Below are positions 11-49,311 of a DNA stretch of 64,000 nt, one piece after another. Both the position numbers and the translations under genes were made by a program. Numbering within the stretch: the first letter of the stretch is position 1; every line of letters begins with the position of its first letter. The notes beneath the pieces were generated by a model. The model was not told the origin of the DNA. It saw only the letters and a list, made by a program, of their open reading frames with translations, and did not search any database. Origin of the DNA: Candidatus Microgenomates bacterium (lineage in GTDB: Bacteria > Patescibacteriota > JACPGU01); NCBI GenBank assembly GCA_016188915.1, contig JACPGU010000001.1, positions 34,111 through 98,110 of the forward strand, read 5' to 3'.

Positions 11-2767
11 GTGGACATCGCCTCTATTATCTTTGACATTGTGCGTCTATTGCTTTATGCCCTGATTATCGCTGGGTGGTTTTGGGGTTTTTTGCTATTG
101 GCTAATGCTTACAAAAAAAGACGCAAAAGATTTTGGTTAGTCAAACAAGAATATACTACTTTGTTGGTCCAAGTACCGCGCAATAATGAAAAAGGCCCAT
201 TGTCTGCTCAATTGATGTTTGCTTCTATTCACGGTATTTATAAATCGGCCAAAGAGAGACTATCCGAAGGATCTTTTCAAGAGCACATCAGCTTTGAGAT
301 AGTTTCAATGAGCAAATATATTAAATTTTATGTCTATGTGCCGACCCATCTGAAAGATTTCATAGAGGGCCAGATTTACTCTCAATACCCGACCGTGGAA
401 ATGCGCGAAGTAGATGATTATACCTTGGCTAGGAGATCAGAGGGAATGCATTTTGTCGGCACCGAATTGGCTCTGGTCAAAAATGATTACTATCCTATCA
501 AGACCTTTGTTAATTTTGAAGTAGATCCGCTAGCTGGGATTACCGGCGTTTTGTCGCAAGTAGAAGAAGATGAGCAGATTTGGGCGCAATTTTTGGTAAG
601 ACCATTGGATGATAGTTGGCAGAGGAAGGCGATCTCTTATGTTTCAGATTTGAGAGCAGGTAAAAAATCTTCTTTCGCCGGCAAAGGAGTAGGGGGAATT
701 TTTAGTTTTTTGGGTTTGGTTTTAAAGGCTTTGAGCGCGCCACCAGAACAGGGGACAGCGGCCAAACCAGTCAAATTAGCCGGACCGGTAGAGCAGGCCG
801 TCAAGGCGATTGAGGACAAATCCACCAAACTGGGCTATGAAGTAAAAATCCGTCTAGCTTTTTTGTCGGACAAAGATCCAGAATCGATGAAGATCAAAAT
901 TCAATCTATCGTGGGCGCTTTCAAACAATACAATTCTTCCAATCTTAATGGTTTTGCTCACAAGAGTACCCATATGGACGATTTTGATTTTATGAACAAA
1001 TTACAGACACGCAGTTTTGAGGAGCCAGGCTTTGTTTTGAATATTGAAGAATTAGCTTCTTTGTACCATTTGCCAACGGCAACCGTTGAGACACCGAGTA
1101 TCGTCTGGGCGGGAGCTAAAAAAGGCGAACCACCGGCAATTTTGCCACTAGAAGGAGTAGTGCCGTCAGATCAATTAACTGCCTTTGCTCAAACTAATTT
1201 TCGCAATAAGGTGGCTAATTTTGGTATCAAATTAGACGATCGTCGCCGTCATATGTATATCATTGGACAAACCGGTACAGGTAAATCCAATATGATGAAA
1301 AGCATGGTCTTGGACGACATCAGAGAGGGGAGGGGATTGGCGGTTATTGATCCGCATGGCGAATTCATTGATACGGCGTTAGACTATATTCCGGAAAATC
1401 GTATTAAAGACGTAGTGGTGATTAACCCGGGCGATAGAGAATACAGCGTTGGTTTTAATTTGTTGGAAAATATCGATCCGGACAGAAGGGAGATTTTAGC
1501 GTCCGGAATGATGTCTATTTTTAAAAAAATCTGGGAAAATGTCTGGTCGGCCAGGATGGAATATATTATGAAAAATATCCTCCTCGCGCTTTTGGAAACG
1601 CCGGGTTCTACTTTGCTTGGCGCGACTAAAATGTTGGTCAATGCCGAATATCGCAGAATGATCGTGGACAATATCACCGACCCTGTAGTGAAAGAATTTT
1701 GGATCGCCGAATTTGAGAATCAGCTGAAAACCAATCCCAAATTTGCCACTGAGGCGGTGGCGCCGATCCAGAACAAAATCGGTCAATTCATCGCCGTACC
1801 CTCTATCCGCAATATCATTGGTCAGCCCAAAAGCACGATTGATATTAAAGAGATTATGGATAACAAAAAAATCCTTTTGGTCAAAATTTCCAAAGGCGAG
1901 ATCGGCGATGACAATATGGCGCTTTTGGGAGCAATGTTGATCACCAAAATACAGCTAACAGCGATGGAAAGATCAGGGACGAGAGAAGAAGAGATGCAAG
2001 ATTTTTATCTCTATGTTGATGAATTCCAAAATTTTGCCACCAGCTCTTTCGCCACTATTTTGTCTGAAGCGAGAAAATACAAATTGAACCTGATTATCGC
2101 CCACCAGTATATCGCTCAAATGACGCAGGAGGTTAGAGACGCGGTGATAGGCAATGCCGGCACAGTGGTGGCTTTTCGTGTCGGTCCGGACGACGCGCCT
2201 ATTTTGAAAAAAGTTTTTGAGCCAGTTTTTGACGAAAACGACCTTTTGAATTTGAGCAATTTTCATATTTATATCAAATTGATGATTGACAATACGGTCA
2301 ATCCGGCTTTTTCAGCTATTACCTTACCCTATACGCGCAATCAAAAGCCCGAGGGTAATCGACAGGCTATTCTAGAGCGCTCCCGCCATAATTTTGCGAT
2401 TAATAGGGGAGTGGTAGAGCAAGCGATTCTGACTTGGAGCCAGCAGATGGCAGAGTTGGAAGAAAGCGCGAAAAAATTAGGTAAAAAAGGTAAAAAAGAA
2501 AATAGGGAAGAGGGAGAAACAAAAATAATCGGCGACATAGCTTATCGTGAGATTAAAGACAAAAAAGGCGGTATCTGGTATGTTAGAAAAGATAAAATTG
2601 GTGATAACGCGAATACGGAAGAGGGGAGTAGGGGGCACGAGGGTATTCGTGATATAAAAATAGCAGAGAATGAAATCGCGGAAGATATGATTTTAACAAA
2701 AAGCGATGGCAGCAATAACAGGGTAGGGGAGGAGGCTTTGACGCCCGGGCAGACGGTGGAATTGTAA
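11..2767 (+). CDS. Membrane-anchored P-loop ATPase of the VirB4/TraG (T4SS) - HerA/DUF87 superfamily, paralog 1. The N-terminus may be truncated by the window edge or start at GTG 11.
   Basis: 918-aa ORF with an N-terminal hydrophobic segment. Walker A is IIGQTGTGKSNMM followed by VIDPHGE; Walker B-like is LYVDEFQNF, then ARKYKLNLIIAHQ. Homologous to ORF 6307..8814 (shared ELAS(L/I)(Y/F)H(L/F)P...TPSIVW block). Confidence 0.6.
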   Translation: MDIASIIFDIVRLLLYALIIAGWFWGFLLLANAYKKRRKRFWLVKQEYTTLLVQVPRNNEKGPLSAQLMFASIHGIYKSAKERLSEGSFQEHISFEIVSMSKYIKFYVYVPTHLKDFIEGQIYSQYPTVEMREVDDYTLARRSEGMHFVGTELALVKNDYYPIKTFVNFEVDPLAGITGVLSQVEEDEQIWAQFLVRPLDDSWQRKAISYVSDLRAGKKSSFAGKGVGGIFSFLGLVLKALSAPPEQGTAAKPVKLAGPVEQAVKAIEDKSTKLGYEVKIRLAFLSDKDPESMKIKIQSIVGAFKQYNSSNLNGFAHKSTHMDDFDFMNKLQTRSFEEPGFVLNIEELASLYHLPTATVETPSIVWAGAKKGEPPAILPLEGVVPSDQLTAFAQTNFRNKVANFGIKLDDRRRHMYIIGQTGTGKSNMMKSMVLDDIREGRGLAVIDPHGEFIDTALDYIPENRIKDVVVINPGDREYSVGFNLLENIDPDRREILASGMMSIFKKIWENVWSARMEYIMKNILLALLETPGSTLLGATKMLVNAEYRRMIVDNITDPVVKEFWIAEFENQLKTNPKFATEAVAPIQNKIGQFIAVPSIRNIIGQPKSTIDIKEIMDNKKILLVKISKGEIGDDNMALLGAMLITKIQLTAMERSGTREEEMQDFYLYVDEFQNFATSSFATILSEARKYKLNLIIAHQYIAQMTQEVRDAVIGNAGTVVAFRVGPDDAPILKKVFEPVFDENDLLNLSNFHIYIKLMIDNTVNPAFSAITLPYTRNQKPEGNRQAILERSRHNFAINRGVVEQAILTWSQQMAELEESAKKLGKKGKKENREEGETKIIGDIAYREIKDKKGGIWYVRKDKIGDNANTEEGSRGHEGIRDIKIAENEIAEDMILTKSDGSNNRVGEEALTPGQTVEL

Positions 2768-2841
2768 GTCTATAAAGTGCTGTAAAGCGTTTGTGTACGC
2801 ACCTAAAAAATTGGTGAAATAAAAAGAAAAGGAGAAGAGTC

Positions 2842-2955
2842 GATGAAATGGATCATTGGAGGAATTATTATTCTTGCAGTGCTTGCAGTGCTTGCAGTGG
2901 GCATTATCTGGGCAATTAGTAAAATAGTCTGCGAAATGGCCGGTTGCAACGACTG
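2842..2955 (+). CDS. Tiny hydrophobic membrane peptide (37 aa) MKWIIGGIIILAVLAVLAVGIIWAISKIVCEMAGCND.
   Basis: Strong RBS (aaaggagaag, 7 nt upstream of ATG). Single TM helix with a (cttgcagtg)x3 tandem nucleotide repeat; C-terminal CxxxxC. Sits immediately 3' of ATPase paralog 1. Confidence 0.35.
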
Positions 2956-2980
2956 AATAAAAAAGGAGGGAGAAGATTGT

Positions 2981-3103
2981 GATGAATATAGTTTTATCGT
3001 CGGTCTTAGTGGTTGTGCTTCTCTTTTTTTCTCTGGAGAATAATGGCGTGATTTTTCGCTTTCCAAAATCTATACGACCTATAAGTCACGGCCGTGAGTT
3101 ATA
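2981..3103 (+). CDS. Tiny hydrophobic peptide (40 aa) MNIVLSSVLVVVLLFFSLENNG...; the 3' end runs into palindrome A.
   Basis: RBS aaaaaggaggga upstream of ATG 2981 (alternative GTG 2978). Hydrophobic N-terminal helix. Confidence 0.3.
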
Positions 3104-3112
3104 GGTCGTATA
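3071..3112. promoter_or_regulatory. 42-bp near-perfect palindrome TATACGACCTATAAGTCACG-GC-CGTGAGTTATAGGTCGTATA (palindrome A), operator-like.
   Basis: Read directly from the sequence. The arm CGTGAGTTATAGGT is shared with the palindrome at 14669..14698. Confidence 0.5.
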
Positions 3113-3282
3113 CAAAAGGAATGCCTGTGTCGATTGACTGGGCATTTTTTGTTTGAGAAAGGTGGTGGTTGTCATGTCGGTTTTTACTTTCGGCAACATT
3201 GTGATATAATTTTGAACAGGTTCTAGGGGAGTCTGCCCCTTAACTTGTTGGAAACCGAAAACGAAAAAAAGGAGAGACAGCC

Positions 3283-3762
3283 GTGGCGAAAATCCTTCGT
3301 GTTACAGGATTCTTTTTTCAGAAAGGAATAAGGCTTGGCTTTGGGTTTGACGATGATGGAGAAAGGATCCCAGGTGTGGTGGCGTTGATAACCGCCACGG
3401 AATTTTTAGGCGCAATTTATATTTCCGAAGAGGAAGCAGGAGGAGATTTGTTTGACATCTTGGAGCATGGCAGGGGTCGCAATGAGCCCGGCGTTGATGC
3501 TTCTAGCCTTTCGGAGATTAAACTGACGGACGAGGAGTTCTCCTTCGTCAAGACATATAAAGACGGAAAGCCCCCGGTTCAGTACTCTTACCGCAAACAC
3601 CCAGACAGCAATGACAAGGTCAGTCCCTGGAAAGGGGAGTGGGTGATAGAAGCCGATGACGAGAGCGGAGAAGAGCGAGGCCCCACCAACTGCATGCTCG
3701 TGGAAATGCCGGAGTGGCTCTACGAGGCGCCAAAAGACTACGACTGGCCGGAGGGCGCATAG
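3283..3762 (+). CDS. Hypothetical acidic protein (159 aa).
   Basis: ORF with RBS aaaaaaaggagagacagcc before a GTG start. Upstream TGaTATAAT extended -10 at ~3199-3207. No recognisable domain. Confidence 0.45.
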   Translation: MAKILRVTGFFFQKGIRLGFGFDDDGERIPGVVALITATEFLGAIYISEEEAGGDLFDILEHGRGRNEPGVDASSLSEIKLTDEEFSFVKTYKDGKPPVQYSYRKHPDSNDKVSPWKGEWVIEADDESGEERGPTNCMLVEMPEWLYEAPKDYDWPEGA

Positions 3763-3798: not shown

Positions 3799-4179
3799 AT
3801 GAAAATAGTTAAGTTTTTCTGGGTGCGATCAATGGCGAATGGGAAGGCGAAGGTATACCCCGCCGATCCAAAAGACTATGGCAAGACTTACCCCAGAACG
3901 GCCGTCGAATTCCGGGGCAAAGAGTCTTTTTTGAATGTTGGTTCTGGGATGAGAAGGATTGTGACAATAGATCACCGCGATAGAATATTTGTCGAAAAAG
4001 ATTCCAGTCCAGGGATCTATGGCAGTTTTGGAGTGATACTGCCAATCAAAAGAGGGTTAACTAAAAGGCAGATTGTCAGTAAAATTCTCAAAAAGTGGGA
4101 AGCCGAGGCCAGGGAAGGCATGGAATACAAAGACGGAGTCATGAGGGAAAGAATTTTCAGGGTGGAGGTGACGCTTTAA
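3799..4179 (+). CDS. Hypothetical protein (126 aa).
   Basis: ORF with RBS aaaggagagagggc before ATG. Followed by a double-hairpin terminator. Confidence 0.5.
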   Translation: MKIVKFFWVRSMANGKAKVYPADPKDYGKTYPRTAVEFRGKESFLNVGSGMRRIVTIDHRDRIFVEKDSSPGIYGSFGVILPIKRGLTKRQIVSKILKKWEAEAREGMEYKDGVMRERIFRVEVTL

Positions 4180-4188
4180 TTTTTCCGT

Positions 4189-4233
4189 CCGGGTTTTGCC
4201 CGGATTAACGGGGCCGCAAGGCCCTTTTGTTTT
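4189..4233 (+). terminator. Rho-independent terminator: two GC hairpins (ccgggttttgcccgg; gggccgcaaggccc) followed by a T-run.
   Basis: Stem-loops followed by TTTTGTTTT. Confidence 0.6.
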
Positions 4234-4585
4234 ACCTCTATTTTTTACCATTAAGCCTAAGCCTGCTTTCGCAAATCCCCAAGAGCAAACTTATAGGAAA
4301 TTTATTCGACCGCTAATTCACGATCGTGAGATAGAGGTCGAAAATAGTAAATACCTATCGAGGAAACGAGGAAGGCAGAACGAACATCGTTTGAGCTTAA
4401 TGTTTTAGCCTGGTAAGTGTAGGGAAGGCCGGGGCTTAGTATATTAAAGGATGCCCAAACGTCAGATATCTTTTAAGGGTAATTGTGAAGATTATCTTTC
4501 TAATCTGGTGTATCAGGTTAGGAATAGGGCTATAAGCCCGTAAAAGGGGATATGCCTTTTTATTTTACCCTGTAAAACCTTGACA

Positions 4586-4600
4586 TTATGCTAAAATATG
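4586..4600 (+). promoter_or_regulatory. Candidate extended -10 promoter (aTGcTAAAATat), adjacent to a TTGACA hexamer.
   Basis: TGnTAAAAT motif. The same tatgctaaaatat string occurs upstream of the small gene at 49312. Confidence 0.25.
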
Positions 4601-4893
4601 TTGCAATATGCAAACCTGTCAATGGCAAATAATGGCTAAATAGAGCCAAAGATAGGAGAGGGGAGGGGGGAAATAAGAAAATAAAAAAATAAGAAATTAA
4701 GAAACTAAATGAGTAGGGAATACGAGGCTAGAGATGTCGCACAAGATACCTTTTGCGACATAGGGTGGGGGCTAAACCTGAAACAGAGCCTTTCTCCTTT
4801 GACTATCATCTCGTTTGTTGTTCAGTAGTGTTTTTTATTCAAGCTCCCCTACCCTATGTCGCAAAAGGTCAATCTGATTGGCGATACGGATCC

Positions 4894-4931
4894 GATGTCC
4901 GACATCTGGGCATCCTTTGATGTCGGACATC
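4894..4931. promoter_or_regulatory. Two copies of the 13-bp palindrome GATGTC(C/G)GACATC separated by 12 bp; operator-like tandem site.
   Basis: Read directly from the sequence; center-to-center spacing is 25 bp. Confidence 0.4.
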
Positions 4932-5103
4932 TTTAAATTCGCCAGTCCCCTACTTTTTATTAATTTATTCGCAAAAATTAGCTTAAATCAGGTATAATTT
5001 ACAATTTCCCATTTAAATGCCCCAGGATGTGTTTTTTGTGTCAAAGTGGGGCAAGACTACCTTTTTTACCCAAAAATAACAGTGGTAGTGGCGTAAAGAC
5101 CTC

Positions 5104-5140
5104 AAAAAACCACCCCTAGATATTTCGGAGTGGTTTTTTG
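5104..5140 (-). terminator. Bidirectional rho-independent terminator (aaaaaaccac...gtggtttttt) ending the minus-strand operon 8814->5193.
   Basis: 9-bp stem with a 17-nt loop, flanked by an A-run and a T-run. Confidence 0.6.
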
Positions 5141-5192
5141 ATACATATCCTTACTTTTTTAATTTTTTACTTTCTTATTTTCTTAGCCAGGG

Positions 5193-5735
5193 CTATTCTT
5201 CAATCGCGGCGCTTTCAATAGCGGCCCAAGAAGATTCTTCGTCGGCGGGAATGGCAATAGTGACGGAATCGCCTGGTTTCAAACGATAATAAGTGACCGA
5301 AGCCAACAGAACCTTGTAGGATTTACTGCCGGCTAATACTTTGTATTGATTGTCTTCAAAAAGCAGTGAGCCAACTAATCTTTTTCTTTCTATGGGTTTG
5401 ATTTGTTTGTAGACGAAAGATCCATCATCTTCAATGGTCAATTTCAAGATGTCTCCTGGAACAAATTTGGATTTACTGGCGTAATTGGCCGGCACGGGAT
5501 ATTTCTTTTTGTCTGGGCCCATCATCATTTCACCGTCAAAAACACCTTCTATCATTTTGCCCTCCGACAAGATATTCAAATCAGCGGCTTTCTGGGCTAG
5601 ATTAATGCTTTTTAGCTTTTTTGTTTTTCCGCCAGATTCGCTGTTCAAAAGTTGCATCGCTGAACGGATTTGCGCTTCAGCCGATTCTAGCAGATGTCGC
5701 ACAATATCGAGATTGTTTTGTTCTTCTTTTGACAT
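5193..5735 (-). CDS. Hypothetical protein (180 aa), last gene of the ATPase-pilin operon.
   Basis: Long ORF co-directional with and closely spaced to the pilin-like gene. No recognisable domain. Confidence 0.5.
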   Translation of the reverse strand: MSKEEQNNLDIVRHLLESAEAQIRSAMQLLNSESGGKTKKLKSINLAQKAADLNILSEGKMIEGVFDGEMMMGPDKKKYPVPANYASKSKFVPGDILKLTIEDDGSFVYKQIKPIERKRLVGSLLFEDNQYKVLAGSKSYKVLLASVTYYRLKPGDSVTIAIPADEESSWAAIESAAIEE

Positions 5736-6306: not shown

Positions 6307-8814
6307 TTACGCTCTATCCCGAATCTCTTCTTCCACGATATTACGATCTCGGCCATATTGCAAGCGCGATAAACCGATGATAGCTTCGGCTATTTTGGGA
6401 TTTTTTTCTATTTTAGAAAAATCCAAAAAAGTGTTCAAGGAAAAAGGTCGCAAATTGGTATTGTCTACCAAAAGGCTCAAATAAGCATTACCACTTTCCA
6501 GATTGGCGATGTCATAAGCATTGAAAACAGGTTCGTATTTTTTTTGTAAAAATTCGGCATCTTCTTCTCCTACTCGAAAAGTGATGAAGGTGCCAACGTT
6601 GCCAAAGACAGCGTCTTTTATCTTGGTATCCCCTCCTTTGCTTATCAGTTGATTGATAAATTGATGGCCGATAGTAAGAGCTAGCTGATATTTTCTGGCT
6701 TCAGATAAAATAGAAGCCACGGAATCAGTCGTAAAGTTTTGAAATTCGTCAATATAGAGGTAAAATGGTTTGCGGTTTTGCTCCGGCATATCTACTCTGC
6801 TCATAGCGGCCAGATATATTTTGCTGACCATAATCAGACCCAGAAGATAGGCGTTCATCTCCCCTATTTGGCCTTTGGCGAGTCGTAAAATTAATATTTT
6901 TTGATTATCCATCACCTCGCGCAAATTAAAAGCGCTTTTTTGTTGGGCGATCATCGGACGCATAATATCATTGGCGATAAATTGTGTGAGCTTGGAAGTA
7001 ATATAGGGCACAATATTAGCCAGGGCCGCTTCTCCACCAGCTTTTTCTGCTTCTTTAAGCCAATAATTTTTTATTATTGGATTGGCACAATGCGACAATT
7101 TCATCATCCGAAAATCTTCATCAGACAAAACACGAGGGATCTCCATAATAGTCGAGCCACTTTCGGGGTGCTCCATCACCAGCAAGGCCGCGTTCCTGAA
7201 ATATTGCTCAAACATTGGTCCACCCGTGGAACGCAAATCGTATAATTTATCAAAAACATTCATCAATTCATTCAAGACCAAAGTTTTCTCTTCTGGTCTG
7301 GTATATTCCAGTAAATTTATGCCGATTGGCCTCTCAAAATCGGCTGGATTAAAAAGAATAACATCCCCTACCCTTTCTTTCGGTATGCGTAAAAGAATGT
7401 CATCGGCATCAGTGCCGTGTGGATCTATGTAGCATAGCCCCTGGCCATTTTTTATATCTTGAATGATCATTTCTTTCATCAGAGTTGATTTGCCGCTACC
7501 AGTTTTGCCCACGATATAGGTATGGCGAACACGATCTTTGGGGCGCATATAGACGGGCGTCCTCAATCCGCGATAAATATTGACACCCAGATAAAGACCT
7601 TCTTTCGGTGTCTCCGGCGGAGCCGCTGCTCTTTTGGACAAAAGCCAAACGATAGAGGGTGTATCTGTATAGCGGTTGGGAAAATGGAAAATAGAGGCTA
7701 ATTCTTCGGTATTTAGAATATTTTTCTCCGCCGAATATGGAAAGGCGCGAAAAACGAAATTTTCAGCCACTATTTTGCTAGTTTGTTTTTTATTAGGTGT
7801 AAAAAAATTACCCGAAGGATGGCGGAAAACAGAAAAAGCGCTGACGATATTATTCAAATGCATTTTGGCCAAAGCTTCTTGGTCGGAAGAGACGACAACG
7901 CGGACTAAAGCCTCAAAACCGACAAAGGCGGCTTTTTCGCCAATCATTTTTATTTTTTGTTCAGTAATAGGGGTAATGGTTTTGGTTTTTTCCGCTTCTT
8001 TTTTGGCCACTTCTTCTGTTTTGAAAGGAGCAGCAGCCAATTCACCTCCTAGTTTGCTGGTAGATTCAGCGATTTTAACCCAATCAATTTTTCCTCCGGG
8101 TCCTCCCCTGCCTTCTTGCAGAGAGTGAATATAATGCTCAGAAATCTTCTGCCATTTTGTTTTCGTGGGACGAATCAATATTTGAACGGCTGCCGCTTCT
8201 TCTGGGCCTAGCTTGAACAAAGTATTGGTGATGGTGTTGAGCGGATCGGTCTCAAATTCTTTGTAGGTTTTGATAGGCATAGCTACTGACTGGCCAAGAG
8301 TTAATTCACTGGCGGCATATTTATCGTCATCTTGAAAGATATTATGGCGTTCTGTTTCTTCCAAAACAGCATCAGGGTAAAAGCTATGGATTTGTTTTTC
8401 TACCAAGGTCAATAATTCTTTTGGTAAAGCGATATAGAAAAATATCTCGCCTTTTTGTGAAACTATTTCAAAAGAAATGTGTGGAGATTTTTCGTGCCAC
8501 CAATTTTTTATTTTGGTATCGCAAACGCTGTATAGCGAAGAAAACATTTGACTAGCGCGGGAGAGCAATTCTTTGTGGTCTTTTTTGGATTCTTCTTCCT
8601 CGCGGGAAGATTTTTTAGGTAACATTATTTTAAGCAAAACCATGTCCAGAGCGCGTGGGATTTTTTTGCTTTGATAGCGTAAATAACGATAAGTATTGAT
8701 TAGCAAGATGGCTGTCAGAATTACAATAGTAATAACGACTAGCCAATACAAAAAATAAAGCAAATTGGTGGCAAGATCTGCTCCTTGGTAGATTGAATTG
8801 TCGACGTATTCCAT
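6307..8814 (-). CDS. Membrane-anchored P-loop ATPase of the VirB4/TraG (T4SS) - HerA/DUF87 superfamily, paralog 2.
   Basis: 835 aa. N-terminal TM segment. Walker A is IVGKTGSGKSTLM followed by YIDPHGT; Walker B-like is LYIDEFQNF, then ARKYQLALTIGHQ. Collinear homology to ORF 11..2767. Confidence 0.65.
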   Translation of the reverse strand: MEYVDNSIYQGADLATNLLYFLYWLVVITIVILTAILLINTYRYLRYQSKKIPRALDMVLLKIMLPKKSSREEEESKKDHKELLSRASQMFSSLYSVCDTKIKNWWHEKSPHISFEIVSQKGEIFFYIALPKELLTLVEKQIHSFYPDAVLEETERHNIFQDDDKYAASELTLGQSVAMPIKTYKEFETDPLNTITNTLFKLGPEEAAAVQILIRPTKTKWQKISEHYIHSLQEGRGGPGGKIDWVKIAESTSKLGGELAAAPFKTEEVAKKEAEKTKTITPITEQKIKMIGEKAAFVGFEALVRVVVSSDQEALAKMHLNNIVSAFSVFRHPSGNFFTPNKKQTSKIVAENFVFRAFPYSAEKNILNTEELASIFHFPNRYTDTPSIVWLLSKRAAAPPETPKEGLYLGVNIYRGLRTPVYMRPKDRVRHTYIVGKTGSGKSTLMKEMIIQDIKNGQGLCYIDPHGTDADDILLRIPKERVGDVILFNPADFERPIGINLLEYTRPEEKTLVLNELMNVFDKLYDLRSTGGPMFEQYFRNAALLVMEHPESGSTIMEIPRVLSDEDFRMMKLSHCANPIIKNYWLKEAEKAGGEAALANIVPYITSKLTQFIANDIMRPMIAQQKSAFNLREVMDNQKILILRLAKGQIGEMNAYLLGLIMVSKIYLAAMSRVDMPEQNRKPFYLYIDEFQNFTTDSVASILSEARKYQLALTIGHQFINQLISKGGDTKIKDAVFGNVGTFITFRVGEEDAEFLQKKYEPVFNAYDIANLESGNAYLSLLVDNTNLRPFSLNTFLDFSKIEKNPKIAEAIIGLSRLQYGRDRNIVEEEIRDRA

Positions 8815-30564: not shown

Positions 30565-30651
30565 ATAAGCTCTCCCCCACCCTCCTTATAATGAATAATA
30601 TGTGTAGTGTTTAGCCAAAATATAGCATACAGGCAGGTTAAAGTCAAAAAG

Positions 30652-38258: not shown

Positions 38259-39716
38259 TTATTTCTTTATCTTTTTATTTTTCCTATAATCTTCTTCTTC
38301 GGCCTTTCTTTCTTCTACCATATTGAAAACTCGTTCTGTTAATTCCTTTAGTTCTACGGTTTCTTGAATGCCATCACGCATATCACGAACCAGAGCTACA
38401 TTTGTCACGGCTTCTCTCTGTCCGATGATAACAGAAAAAAGAGCGTTTACTTTGTCGGCTGCTTTCATTTGCGCCTTGATTGTATCTTTGCCTACAGCCA
38501 TACCGACGGAAATACCTATCTTCCGCAGATTTTTTACTATTTGCAAAGCTATTTTTTTTGATTCTTCTCCCAGGTGAATAACATAGACATTGATTTTGGA
38601 TTTGGGCTTGGGAACTCTGATATTTTCTGTTTTGAGGTGTTCCACAATCCTGTCTATCCCCAGACCAAAACCGATAGCTGGAGTCATCTCGCCGCCCAAT
38701 TCTTCCACGAGACAGTCATAGCGTCCTCCCCCGCCCAAAGCGTTTTGTCTTTTGGTGTCATTCTTGGTGATTATTTCAAAAACTGTGCGATTATAATAAT
38801 CAAATCCACGGACGAGATTGGGAGCCAAATTATATGGCACACCCATCTCGTCTAGATATTCTAAGACAGACATAAAGTGTCCTTTGCAGTCTTCGCAAAT
38901 ATTTTCTATCATCAAAGGTGCGACTGCGATTAGTGCTTGGCATTTTTCATTTTTACAATCCAGAATACGCAAAGGATTTTTTTTCAATCTTTTTTTGCAA
39001 TCATCACAAAGTTTGCTCTCTTTTTTCTTAAAAAAATCTGTCAATATTTTTTTTATTCTTGGCCGACAGACAGAACAACCCATAGAATTAATGTTTATCT
39101 CGGCGCTGGTTATTCTCATATCTGTTAGCATTTGCCACGACACGCCGATAGTGTTGGCATCAATGGTAGGATCTGATTCTCCGAATATTTCTACCGAACA
39201 TTGCGTAAATTCGCGGAAACGTCCAGATTGAGGATTCTCGTGGCGAAAACAACGACCGATAGTGTAGAGAGAAACTGGCTTGGGCCAAACCTGCATGCCA
39301 TTTTCAATATAGGCTCGTACTATGCCAGCGGTTAATTCTGGTCGTAGAGCCAATTGAGACTGCTCTTCTTTGTCTTTTTTTCCACTTGTTCCCTTGTTTT
39401 TGCTACCATCAAAAACATACATTTCCTTGCTGACGACATCGGTTTCTTCGCCAACGCTACGCAGGAAAAGATCGGATTTTTCCAGCATAGGGACCTCTAT
39501 TTTTTCCAGCCCCGCTCCCTGGGCTACTGATTCAATAACGCTTATCGCGAAATCCCAGTAATGACTGTCTTCTGGTAAGATATCGCGAAATCCCTTGAGG
39601 CGGTTTATTGGTTGCATTTTAGGCATAAAAATATAACGGCAAATAGTAAATTTGGAGGCAATAAAAACAAACCTCTTCTTACTATTATACCGCACTCTGT
39701 CAAGAGCGAGTGGCAT
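38259..39716 (-). CDS. hisS: Histidyl-tRNA synthetase with a Cys-rich (zinc-ribbon-like) insertion; the start is probably an internal ATG (~39633).
   Basis: Class II motifs (RPELTAGIVRAY; FRHENPQSGRFREF; GGGRYD); anticodon-binding C-terminal domain. Confidence 0.8.
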   Translation of the reverse strand: MPLALDRVRYNSKKRFVFIASKFTICRYIFMPKMQPINRLKGFRDILPEDSHYWDFAISVIESVAQGAGLEKIEVPMLEKSDLFLRSVGEETDVVSKEMYVFDGSKNKGTSGKKDKEEQSQLALRPELTAGIVRAYIENGMQVWPKPVSLYTIGRCFRHENPQSGRFREFTQCSVEIFGESDPTIDANTIGVSWQMLTDMRITSAEININSMGCSVCRPRIKKILTDFFKKKESKLCDDCKKRLKKNPLRILDCKNEKCQALIAVAPLMIENICEDCKGHFMSVLEYLDEMGVPYNLAPNLVRGFDYYNRTVFEIITKNDTKRQNALGGGGRYDCLVEELGGEMTPAIGFGLGIDRIVEHLKTENIRVPKPKSKINVYVIHLGEESKKIALQIVKNLRKIGISVGMAVGKDTIKAQMKAADKVNALFSVIIGQREAVTNVALVRDMRDGIQETVELKELTERVFNMVEERKAEEEDYRKNKKIKK

Positions 39717-42213
39717 CCATTTTATTTCTGAGAATTTTTTTCTTTTCTAGGTTTAGACTGTCAGTTTTTGCATCTATTATGATATGATCACCAGAAATAA
39801 AGCGATCACCAATCAATTCTTCGGCTAATTTGTTTTCTATCTCTGCTTCTATCAAGCGACGGATCGGACGAGCGCCGTATTCCGGGTCAAATCCCCGATC
39901 AGCCAGCCATTTTTTAGCTTTGGCGGTGAATTCTAGGACAATACCTTTTTCCAGCAGGACTCTTTCCGCTAAAGTTTTCAGATTGATATTAACGATTTTG
40001 CCGATAGCAATACTATCTAATGGGCGAAAAACAACTATTTTGTCTACGCGATTGAGAAACTCCGGACTGAAATATTTTTTACTATCTGTCAAAACTTTGT
40101 TTTTCATTTGCTCGTAATCGCTCTCGGCCAAAGTTTTTTCTCGAGTTGTTTTGGCGGAAAATCCCATTGTAGCGGAACGGGACAAATCGGCCATTCCCAG
40201 GTTAGAAGTCATAATAATAATGGTGTTTTTGAAATCCACCTTGCGTCCTTTGGCATCAGTCAAATACCCATCTTCCAAAACTTGCAAAAGCATATTGAAA
40301 ACTTCGGGATGAGCTTTTTCTATTTCGTCAAACAGAACTACTGAATACGGTTTCTTACGGACTGCTTCGGTCAGTTTGCCCCCGTCGTCATAACCGACGT
40401 AACCTGCCGGTGCGCCGACAAGACGGCTGACATTATGTCGTTCCATGAATTCCGACATATCTATTTTGATTAGAGCATCCTCCCTCTCGTAAACTTCTTG
40501 AGCGAGGACTTTGGCTAATTCTGTTTTTCCCACTCCGGTTGGTCCTAGGAAAATAAAAGAACCGATTGGCCTGACGGGATTGCCCACGCCAGATCTACTT
40601 CTCCTGATAGCTCGGGCGATATTGATAATGGCTTCCTCTTGTCCGACGATTCGGCTCCCAAGAGTTTTTTCCAAAAAACTGAATTTATGGATTTCGGAAG
40701 AGATTAATTTGGTGATAGGGATACTGGTCCAATTACTGACTACGCGAGCGATGTCTTCCGTAGTAACTCGCGCTCTTTTTTCAGTTGGAATATCTTGTTT
40801 TTCCAAACGTAAGCGATCTAGCTCTTCTTTCAAAAATAATTCTTGGTCGCGTAACTGGGCGGCCATTTCAAAGGCTTGATCGGAAATAGCTTTATTTTTG
40901 CCCTTGATAGTTTCGACCAATCTGATCTCTAATTTTTTGACATCTTCGCTCTCCCCTACTTTTTCACGGATAACAACGGCTGAGCAGGCCTCATCCAGCA
41001 AATCAATAGCTTTGTCTGGCAGAAATCTATCGGCGATGTAGCGATGAGCAAGTTTGGCCGCAATCAAAAGAGCCTCTTCCTCTACCTTCACTTGGTGAAA
41101 ATCTTCATAGCGCGGAGCAATGCCTCGTAGAATAGCCACTGTTTCTTCCTGGCTTGGCTCTTCTACCAAAATGGGCTGAAAGCGTCTCTCAAAAGCGGCG
41201 TCTTTTTCAATATATTTACGATATTCATTGATGGTAGTGGCTCCGATACAGGATATTTTGCCACGAGAAAGAGCCGGTTTTAGCATATTACTAGCATCCA
41301 TTGACCCTTCTGCCGCGCCTGCTCCGACGATGGTATGCAATTCGTCAATAAAAAGAATAATGTTTTTGTCTTTTTCTACCTCGGCCAGCAACTTTTTTAT
41401 TCTTTCCTCAAATTCACCCCTAAATTTCGTGCCGGCGACCATGGCGCCCAGGTCGATAGAATAAATTTTTTTACCTTTTAGTTTGATCGGCACCTCCCCG
41501 AAAGCTATTTTGGCGGCCAATCCTTCTACAATGGCGGTTTTGCCTACGCCCGGATCGCCGATTAGAACAGGGTTGTTTTTAGTTTTGCGCGTTAAAATAT
41601 GAGTTAGGCGCGATATTTCTTTTTCACGACCGATGGTGGGATCGAGTTTTGTACCCTCGGCCTCTGCTGTCAAATCAATAGCATAAGCGTTCAACATAGA
41701 ATTAGTTTTATTTTTGACAGTACGGCCGGCAGTTACCTCTTGCTCTTTTGGTTTTTCAGGCATTTGCGCGGTGGACATAACAAAGATATGTTCAATTTGC
41801 TGAATAATGGTGGCTGGATTAACATCAATATTCTGGATTAAAGCGTAGGCTCTGAAATCAGAATTAGACAAAATACCAAAAAGCAGATGTTCACTGCCAA
41901 CATAAAAATGCTCATTTTGTCGCGCTACAACGATGGCTTTTTCTAGAGCTTGCCTCAAATCATGAGAAAGCCCGTTTTTCTGTAAATCCATTGAGCCATG
42001 CCACATCAAATTCATGGCAATTTCTATTCTTTCAAAATCTATTCCAAAACTAGATAATATTTCGTAGGCCACACCAATTTTTTCCGCTAAAATAGCGAGT
42101 AATACATGCTCGGTGCTGACAGCGCCAGAATTCATATCTTGAGCAATAGTCTGCGAAAGACTCAAAATTTTTTTAGCGTTGTAGGTGAAACGGTCAAAGC
42201 CAAATTCATTCAT
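39700..42213 (-). CDS. clpC: ATP-dependent Clp chaperone ClpC (two AAA+ modules, Clp_N repeats).
   Basis: Two Walker A sites ([13 protein letters not shown]; [12 protein letters not shown]); N-terminal Clp repeats; 837 aa. Confidence 0.85.
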
Positions 42214-42248: not shown

Positions 42249-42450
42249 ATATGGCGATAAAAGTCCATACTCCAAATGTGCATATTGGCACTCTAAATAT
42301 CCGAGTGCTAATATTATTATATTGCTCCCGCAAAAAGCTGTCAAGATGGCGGAGGGTCACCGTAAAATTTCCCAAAAATATAGTCCTTTGGACTGATTCT
42401 CGCCTACTTAATTGATGGGTGGGGGTTTTTATTTTACTATAACAAAAAAA

Positions 42451-49102: not shown

Positions 49103-49311
49103 TTTAATTTCTTATTTTTCGCACTCCTTAATTTTTCTGCAATAGTTTTGTGCGACCCGCCGTAGCGCAATCTATTTGCAAATTCCTGATATTCAGGATA
49201 TTGCAAGAGATTAAGCGAAGGAGGGCTTAATTTCTTATTTTCTTAGCCTCTATTTTATGCTAAAATATCCCCAGATGAAAGAGCGAGGTTTTGCTCTTTT
49301 AAAATCAAATA

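Follow-up and report, generated by a model that had tools for sequence, protein, structure and literature searches.

What does the long gene-free spacer between two convergent genes of a Candidatus Microgenomates bacterium do, and why is it so rich in palindromes? The spacer lies in a 64,000-nt stretch of contig JACPGU010000001.1 (assembly GCA_016188915.1). This whole stretch is called the window here, and coordinates refer to it unless another locus is named. A preliminary description had read the spacer as a candidate non-coding RNA (ncRNA) or regulatory hub, an interpretation that is partly supported. The sequence features that it listed are all present, apart from small slips in position or length. 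With good confidence, the spacer is a replication-terminus region in which the palindrome at 4734-4761 is a putative dif, the chromosome dimer-resolution site, with motifs like the FtsK-orienting polar sequences (KOPS) converging on it. A terminus site of the dif type is favored because the polar motif, gene orientation and GC skew all reverse exactly there. The spacer, its borders and the site are as follows.

4180-5192: spacer, between the stops of two convergent open reading frames (ORFs)
3799..4179, + strand: 126-aa ORF, left border of the spacer, stop at 4179
5193..5735, - strand: 180-aa ORF, right border of the spacer, stop at 5193
4734..4761, no strand assigned: dif-like site ATGTCGCACAA - GATACC - TTTTGCGACAT, two 11-bp inverted arms around a 6-bp centre

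The element has an 11-6-11 layout, is conserved across the Candidate Phyla Radiation (CPR), occurs once per stretch of sequence, sits at a reversal of strand polarity and has copies in phages. The hairpin ATGTCGCA-N12-TGCGACAT that had first drawn attention to it is indeed present at 4734-4761. The full 28-bp site is a single copy in the window, allowing up to 5 substitutions, and ATGTCGCA is found 5 times in the 64 kb where 1.36 would be expected, with 4 copies clustered inside 1 kb. When the spacer was compared by BLAST with loci carrying homologues of the 180-aa gene, the hairpin alone was picked out. With 0-2 substitutions, the site was found in five distant CPR genomes (L003, L004, L008, L017 and L020), including candidate division Kazan (L004); these are 5 of the 80 loci listed in a scan covering mostly distant relatives. 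Among relatives with enough sequence for close comparison, exactly one copy lies in the syntenic convergent spacer (L003, L083, L084, L208, L210, L211/L212, L213, L109 and L206). Comparison of the syntenic spacer, the check proposed in the preliminary description, supports a functional and conserved spacer. The 28-mer, a promoter and a conserved non-coding block (block A) are kept in relatives. An exact-pattern scan of metagenome contigs gave at least 120 stretches with the site, one copy each. One site per stretch is the rule in more than 130 stretches, copy number being counted per window or stretch.

The recurring palindrome is GTCG(C/T)A(C/T)AA-N6-TTGTGCGAC, with the same 11-6-11 layout in all relatives. 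The right arm is always TTGTGCGAC. Both the left arm (GTCGCACAA, GTCGCATAA, GTCGTACAA) and the centre (GATACA, CATACA, GATATA, CATATA and CCTTCA, with GATACC in the window) are variable; as the metagenome and viral scans used a strict pattern, centre variants are under-sampled and part of the arm sequence is fixed by ascertainment.

The genes around the site bear on the suggestion of a regulatory hub, in which tandem operators for a dimeric transcription factor would control local genes. Several perfect palindromes do lie near a real promoter, as such a hub would have. However, the main palindrome is found at the 3' ends of genes, its contexts are unrelated and there is one copy per stretch. 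Among the matches listed, contexts callable on both sides comprise 40 convergent, 33 co-directional and 3 divergent neighbour pairs, so that just 3 of 76 are of the divergent kind. The twin palindromes that had been likened to tandem operators are also absent from relatives. A hub of this kind is therefore exceedingly improbable. The central hairpin, at the 3' ends of convergent genes and once per stretch, does not behave as a local operator. For the palindromes in general, protein-binding DNA is the best reading, as had been proposed.

Two genes recur beside the site. In about 33 of 132 site-bearing stretches (among the matches listed) it lies 11-156 nt past the stop of an FtsQ-type (POTRA_1) cell-division gene, the distance being up to about 100 nt in most, for example at 4449-4476 in L111 and 3929-3956 in L128 (set L088-L207). 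The site is found in either orientation relative to the FtsQ-type gene. In about 15 stretches among the matches listed it lies 3' of the 180-aa gene, and gene contexts are diverse. The 180-aa gene was considered as a determinant of the site and rejected, since most sites are elsewhere and most homologues of the gene come without the site.

Gene orientation and base composition both change at the site. Coding bases are 83% + strand to its left and 75% - strand to its right. From left to right, mean GC skew falls from +0.072 to -0.049, and in the window GC skew passes from +0.12..+0.23 to negative values across the site. When k-mers were screened without bias for strand skew about the site, one family stood out, a polar motif with the core AGGGGA, of which 636 copies point toward the site and 41 away. 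Its flank consensus is RRNAGGGGA(G), and further strings were counted as follows.

AGGGGAG: 288 toward the site, 8 away
AGGGGAGA: 100 toward the site, 0 away
GCAGGGGA: 79 toward the site, 0 away
TAGGGGAG: 102 toward the site, 3 away

Control hexamers, both Shine-Dalgarno-like and purine-rich, point toward the site in 56-75% of cases at most. The reversal of polarity is exact at the site, with 33(+):5(-) in the left 250 nt and 2(+):72(-) in the right 250 nt, and 65 of 70 informative loci conform to the switch. In the window itself AGGGGA stands at 10(+):0(-) left of 4734 (up to 4659) and 4(+):34(-) to the right (from 4850), a strand switch at 4734 with a Fisher p of 1.5e-7. The copies bordering the site are:

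4654..4670, + strand: last polar cluster on the left, AGGAGAGGGGAGGGGGG, with AGGGGA at 4659-4664, toward the site
4845..4850, - strand: first polar motif on the right, AGGGGA, pointing back to the site; second copy at 4946-4951

A G-rich block is seen at the same relative place as 4654..4670 in relatives. The - strand bias of AGGGGA persists through the + strand genes at 49.7-60.3 kb. In ORFs transcribed away from the site, AGGGGA still points toward it (53:7), whereas the control GAAGAA tracks gene direction (49:143). At 42 loci that have the 180-aa gene but not the palindrome, there is no AGGGGA switch (41:35 on one side, 46:23 on the other). Thus, the away-transcribed ORFs and the site-less loci separate the polar motif from transcription effects. 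A replication origin was considered at the divergent gene switch around 49.2-49.7 kb and rejected, as the polar motif does not flip there. The KOPS of E. coli has the sequence GGGNAGGG, which RRNAGGGGA(G) resembles. The CPR motif also behaves in the manner of KOPS, being short, G-rich and highly skewed, and pointing toward the site on both sides regardless of transcription.

How closely the element itself resembles known dif sites was assessed in two ways. By the criteria of Kono 2011 (PMC3025954), a dif is 28 bp long and its positions 7-12 form more than 4 of the 6 possible pairs with positions 17-22; the site has this length and forms 5 of the 6. A phylum-averaged position weight matrix (PWM) was made from 64 known dif sites, 62 from the supplement of that paper (PMC3025954) plus the E. 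coli and B. subtilis sites. On the window, the two orientations of the site score 10.5 and 9.5 bits (mean -21.4, sd 7.7). Their ranks are 4th and 6th among 127,946 positions, and the excess over the mean is about 4.2 sd.

Several features are shared with the dif/XerCD/FtsK-KOPS system of Proteobacteria, Firmicutes and other phyla (PMC3025954), namely a 28-bp site with 11-bp inverted arms and a 6-bp centre, one arm being more conserved than the other. Both are intergenic, both lie at a switch of GC skew and gene orientation, and both are exploited by mobile elements. In both, a G-rich polar motif converges on the site, RRNAGGGGA(G) here and GGGNAGGG in E. coli. Canonical dif differs in its arms, which are ..GATAAT / ATTATG.. 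there and ..TCGCACAA / TTGTGCGA.. here. Relative to canonical dif the CPR arms carry a symmetric change, from ATAA/TTAT to ACAA/TTGT, which would fit co-evolution with the recombinase. The CPR site is a moderate match to existing dif profiles and, unlike canonical dif, often adjoins an FtsQ-type gene or a cluster of genes like those of type IV secretion systems (T4SS).

Xer systems with a single recombinase are archaeal XerA/dif, XerH/difH and XerS/difSL, and the XerS and XerH genes lie beside their sites. The arms of the CPR site are near-perfectly symmetric, as expected if one recombinase binds both. In contrast to XerS and XerH, where the recombinase gene is beside the site, the sole recombinase found adjacent to the CPR site (in L102) is of a phage or island integrase family. 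Plasmid Xer sites such as cer and psi have accessory sequences, and pdif modules are known from Acinetobacter. The spacer is similar to these in combining a core Xer-type site with nearby extra elements or half-sites, some of them inverted, but differs in being chromosomal and at the terminus, with no recognisable accessory architecture of the ArgR/PepA type.

A palindrome at a terminus might instead bind a termination or terminus-organising protein of the Tus/Ter, RTP or MatP/matS kind and not a recombinase. Ter and matS sites, however, are multi-copy and flank the terminus, whereas here each stretch has a single one. Recombination is also indicated by the 11-6-11 layout, by the likeness to dif profiles and by the phage copies with integrase half-sites (below). 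This possibility is thus considered highly improbable.

Copies of the site are also found in viruses. The strict pattern occurs in 29 viral contigs of IMG/VR, in 22 sequence clusters (L214-L242), mostly as GTCGTACAA-CATATA-TTGTGCGAC. In the viral contigs AGGGGA is sparse, with no switch at the site (17:25 and 17:8). Three viral clusters that were checked encode a terminase, portal, UvsX-like recombinase, helicase and sliding clamp, and are therefore real tailed phages. Examples of viral sites are:

L221, 6931-6958: viral copy of the site
L235, 5544-5571: viral copy of the site
L217, 7461-7488: viral copy of the site

In L102, a Xer-like tyrosine recombinase (2262-3304) is encoded 140 nt from the site, with best NCBIfam matches to XerA, XerC and XerD, all below cut-off. 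The flank of L102 is a type I restriction-modification island. Homologues of this integrase (P0141, P0142 and P0154) are in phage genomes, and all three examined have dif-like half-sites beside int. The L102 recombinase was therefore rejected as a host Xer, its homologues being phage-borne and its flank an island, and the family is mobile-element-borne. The half-sites, each with one good and one degenerate arm, are:

L243, about 5000: dif-like half-site beside int
L244, 5319-5342: dif-like half-site beside int
L246, about 1880: dif-like half-site beside int

From these copies and half-sites, the site is a target of phages and islands. The same is known of dif elsewhere, where integrative mobile elements exploiting Xer (IMEX) integrate at dif (PMC3025954). 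The likeness to IMEX lies in phages that carry a dif-like site, in attP-like sites of which some have one good and one degenerate arm, and in arm-like remnants that adjoin the chromosomal site. Examples of IMEX are CTXphi, TLC and the gonococcal island. The CPR carriers that were checked differ in being tailed and not filamentous phages. One group encodes its own Xer-related integrase, and in the CPR case integration itself is predicted from site copies and half-sites.

Could the 28-mer then be a mere attB, used by temperate CPR phages and islands with their own Xer-like integrase and with no role in host dimer resolution? Phage contigs that carry the site, phage integrase homologues with half-sites next to int, and the integrase and restriction-modification island that abut the site in L102 are all as this would predict. 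However, a functionless site would not stay nearly invariant across class-level CPR lineages, nor would it sit exactly at a replichore-wide reversal of the polar motif in 65 of 70 informative loci. Moreover, phages normally pick sites that the host conserves, for example tRNA genes or dif itself. A pure attachment site is thus very unlikely.

In the proposed role as dif, one or two Xer-type tyrosine recombinases would bind the two 11-bp inverted arms, by analogy with dif/Xer/FtsK. Strand exchange across the 6-bp centre would then resolve chromosome dimers at division. An FtsK-type translocase may be steered to the site by RRNAGGGGA(G), which is oriented toward it on both replichores.

Several points weigh against assigning this role. 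The top match of the dif PWM is at 30581-30608, away from any polarity switch, and the site is not first; sequence similarity alone would not identify it. Neither a Xer recombinase nor an FtsK gene was found among the ORFs tested in these 64 kb of the genome, and, as stated above, the count of one copy applies per window or stretch. The frequent location 3' of the FtsQ-type gene or the 180-aa gene could hint at a gene-linked role. The left-arm variants are all C-to-T changes that keep G-U pairing on one strand, which fits an RNA hairpin too. Finally, a conserved promoter at 4580-4607 reads through the site.

The last two points lead to the question of whether the spacer is transcribed. The promoter and the sequence that follows it are:

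4580..4607, + strand: sigma-70-type promoter TTGACA-N16-(TGT)TGCAAT, facing the site about 125 nt downstream
4671..4718, + strand: A-rich 8-nt periodic repeat, AAATAAGA four times, between the G-rich cluster and the site

The TTGACA hexamer at 4580-4585 and the aTGcTAAAAT that follows it had been noted as promoter-like, a view upheld by conservation of the element in nine of nine relatives. Across these nine family spacers TTGACA is invariant and AATATGTTGYAATAT is conserved, and the promoter always follows a terminator and faces the site from 125-175 nt away. Perfect TTGACA-N16-18-TRNAAT promoters number just three in the 64 kb, the other two preceding a NusA operon and a ClpB-like gene; a phage-like contig also has a promoter of this type. 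Downstream of the promoter, relatives retain only a G-rich polar cluster, an A-rich tract and a TAGGG box, and no ORF is conserved. The A-rich tracts are at the same place in relatives, and the A-rich repeat has an inverted counterpart at 5151-5185, in the 3' untranslated region (UTR) of the 180-aa gene. Compared with shuffled sequence, 4612-4940 has a folding z-score of -4.2, much of which is owed to its inverted repeats.

If an ncRNA were made from this promoter, the hairpin, inverted repeat and twin palindromes would be structural parts of it. It could, for example, be a small RNA (sRNA) or an antisense RNA whose 3' end lies at the palindrome stem or the terminator 5102-5141. Such an RNA would be compatible with dif. 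The promoter kept in nine of nine relatives, of a quality like that of real operon promoters, the better-than-shuffled folding of 4612-4940, the G-U compatible left-arm variants and the lack of a conserved ORF downstream of the promoter are all consistent with it. However, between promoter and site it is the G-rich and A-rich composition that is kept and not alignable sequence, and the inverted repeat and twin palindromes are not conserved as such. Covariance models, the check that had been proposed for an ncRNA, matched no family: Rfam 15 gave 0 matches at gathering score in the whole window, and at E values up to 10 the region 4100-5250 gave chance-level matches only. A tRNA and tmRNA scan found none in the window. 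The 28-mer also occurs in many unrelated contexts and in either orientation relative to neighbour genes, which is unexpected for a transcript-specific element and goes against the central hairpin as a strand-specific RNA element. Convergence of the polar motif would moreover be left unexplained. An ncRNA as the main identity of the spacer is thus unlikely; a non-coding transcript from the promoter crossing dif is possible.

dif and KOPS are textbook systems, and the CPR site would extend a known type. The literature searched contained no account of dif, Xer sites or KOPS from CPR. As a tentative proposal, CPR may share the lineage-specific dif consensus (A/G)TGTCG(C/T)A(C/T)AA-N6-TTGTGCGAC together with a KOPS-like RRNAGGGGA(G), both apparently undescribed, with diverse tailed phages and islands exploiting the site, some by way of a full copy and others with a Xer-related integrase and a half-site. 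If so, the site would be a terminus marker for metagenome-assembled CPR genomes and a direct link from phage to host. CPR make up a large share of bacterial diversity and their chromosome biology is almost unstudied. The dif consensus and polar motif would serve in locating termini, checking CPR metagenome assemblies, anchoring replication-rate estimates based on origin and terminus, and finding the host Xer and FtsK partners. The 28-mer in phages would give a sequence-based link of uncultured phages to CPR hosts and would flag the terminus as an integration hot spot. Arm-like repeats in the spacer would be scars of phage or island events, and a promoter firing through dif would hint at transcription-coupled control of the site. 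For the window, the supposed regulatory hub would become an expected housekeeping element.

The arm-like repeats around the putative dif are as follows.

4846..4869, no strand assigned: inverted arm copy CCCCTACCCT ATGTCGCAAAA GGT, an extra half-site, pairing with 4748-4771 (24 nt, 96% complementary)
4894..4931, no strand assigned: twin 13-bp palindromes GATGTCCGACATC and GATGTCGGACATC, together able to form a 13-bp stem, terminator-like on the + strand
5691..5703, - strand: 13-mer TTGTGCGACATCT across the IVRH codons of the 180-aa gene, a perfect match to 4731-4743 (arm plus flank)

The pairing of AGGGTGGGG with CCCCTACCCT about 100 nt away, seen earlier, falls inside the 24-nt inverted repeat 4748-4771 / 4846-4869, and the second ATGTCGCAAAAGG copy is at 4856-4868. 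The copy at 4846-4869 mirrors one arm of the site and extends 3 nt into the centre and 10 nt into the flank. L083, L085-87 and L210, the last with three copies, likewise have extra half-sites made of centre plus arm on the gene side of the site, and a G-rich polar motif follows each. The two 13-bp palindromes reported before are both perfect (GATGTCCGACATC at 4894-4906, GATGTCGGACATC at 4919-4931), their starts 25 bp apart. Their halves, TGTCGGACATC, resemble the outer dif arm TGTGCGACATC. In relatives the twin palindromes are absent, and they are specific to the window. Both 4846-4869 and 4894-4931 may be arm-derived copies, either scars of recombination or integration or accessory half-sites. 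Inside the 180-aa gene, GAT ATT GTG CGA CAT is invariant in five family lineages, synonymous positions included, while neighbouring codons vary.

Between the site and the terminator of the 180-aa gene lies a further conserved element.

4981..5054, no strand assigned: block A, conserved non-coding, with central palindrome (G/C)CATTTAAATGC

Block A is about 75 nt long, with the palindrome GCATTTAAATGC and the pattern ...TTGAACCTGTAAAATAGC-N5-GCATTTAAATGCGC..ATCGATTTT... It is conserved in L083, L084, L208, L210 and L085-87, a comparison of six closely similar sequences.

The spacer is bounded by two terminators, as had been described, with hairpins at 4210-4225 and 5102-5141, and a further one lies within it.

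4210..4235, + strand: intrinsic terminator of the 126-aa gene (hairpin 4210-4225)
4542..4567, + strand: second terminator, directly upstream of the promoter, its tail repeating that of the first
5102..5141, both strands: bidirectional terminator hairpin after the 180-aa gene

A terminator is also present in relatives at the position equivalent to 4542..4567. The segment of about 330 nt between the look-alike terminators (4237-4569; tails GCCCTTTTGTTTTACC and GCCTTTTTATTTTACC) folds into consecutive hairpins (z = -3.3). None of the relatives fetched has an equivalent, and the segment may represent an sRNA or an insertion. In one related lineage, contigs from three independent assemblies stop at a shared point (L085 at 7066, L086 at 6818 and L087 at 4658), about 455-514 nt after the 180-aa gene and just beyond a degenerate half-site, which suggests strain-variable sequence at the terminus, perhaps an insertion.

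The statement that the spacer holds no ORF above 40 aa does not hold literally. Two mechanical ORFs with TTG starts exceed that length, one of 70 aa at 4196..4408 and one of 55 aa at 4753..4920, but neither has a Pfam match or is conserved. The spacer ORFs of 70, 55, 39, 30 and 64 aa had no Pfam match, and none of the ORFs called in the spacers of relatives is conserved. A hidden protein gene was thus rejected.

The window encodes aminoacyl-tRNA synthetases, NusA, NusB, a ClpB-like ATPase, a RadA-like protein, TGT and other housekeeping functions, and is therefore chromosomal. VirB4/TrwB-like ATPases are encoded on both sides of the spacer and a T4SS-type pilin on the right, an arrangement kept in relatives.

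11-2767, + strand, and 6307-8814, - strand: paralogous VirB4/TrwB-like ATPases (DUF87, TrwB_AAD_bind, TraG-D_C), facing each other across the terminus

At every residue, the 180-aa protein matches HYV44_00175 (Candidatus Microgenomates bacterium), which places the window in CPR/Patescibacteria; exact matches to the proteins of the two flanking genes came from this contig alone. It has more than 7,800 homologues across CPR with 50-83% identity and belongs to no Pfam or NCBIfam family. Its gene, very conserved in CPR, is always preceded by a VirB4/TrwB-like ATPase and a T4SS-type pilin.

Two short repeats link the spacer to a divergent promoter region at 49.1-49.3 kb. The 19-mer reported as repeated at 5171 and 49229 does have two copies, but is an 18-mer, TTTCTTATTTTCTTAGCC, at 5171-5188 and 49231-49248. 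A 12-mer, ATGCTAAAATAT, is found at 4589-4600 and 49257-49268, and TGCTAAAAT is an extended -10. Both repeats look like shared promoter or UTR elements. Elsewhere in the window a perfect TTGACA-N17-TATAAT promoter (42285-42344, - strand) is followed by an inverted repeat, TTAGCACTC-N9-GAGTGCCAA, like CIRCE (controlling inverted repeat of chaperone expression), upstream of the ClpB-like AAA+ gene at 39700..42213. By its sequence, this repeat looks like a heat-shock operator of the HrcA type.

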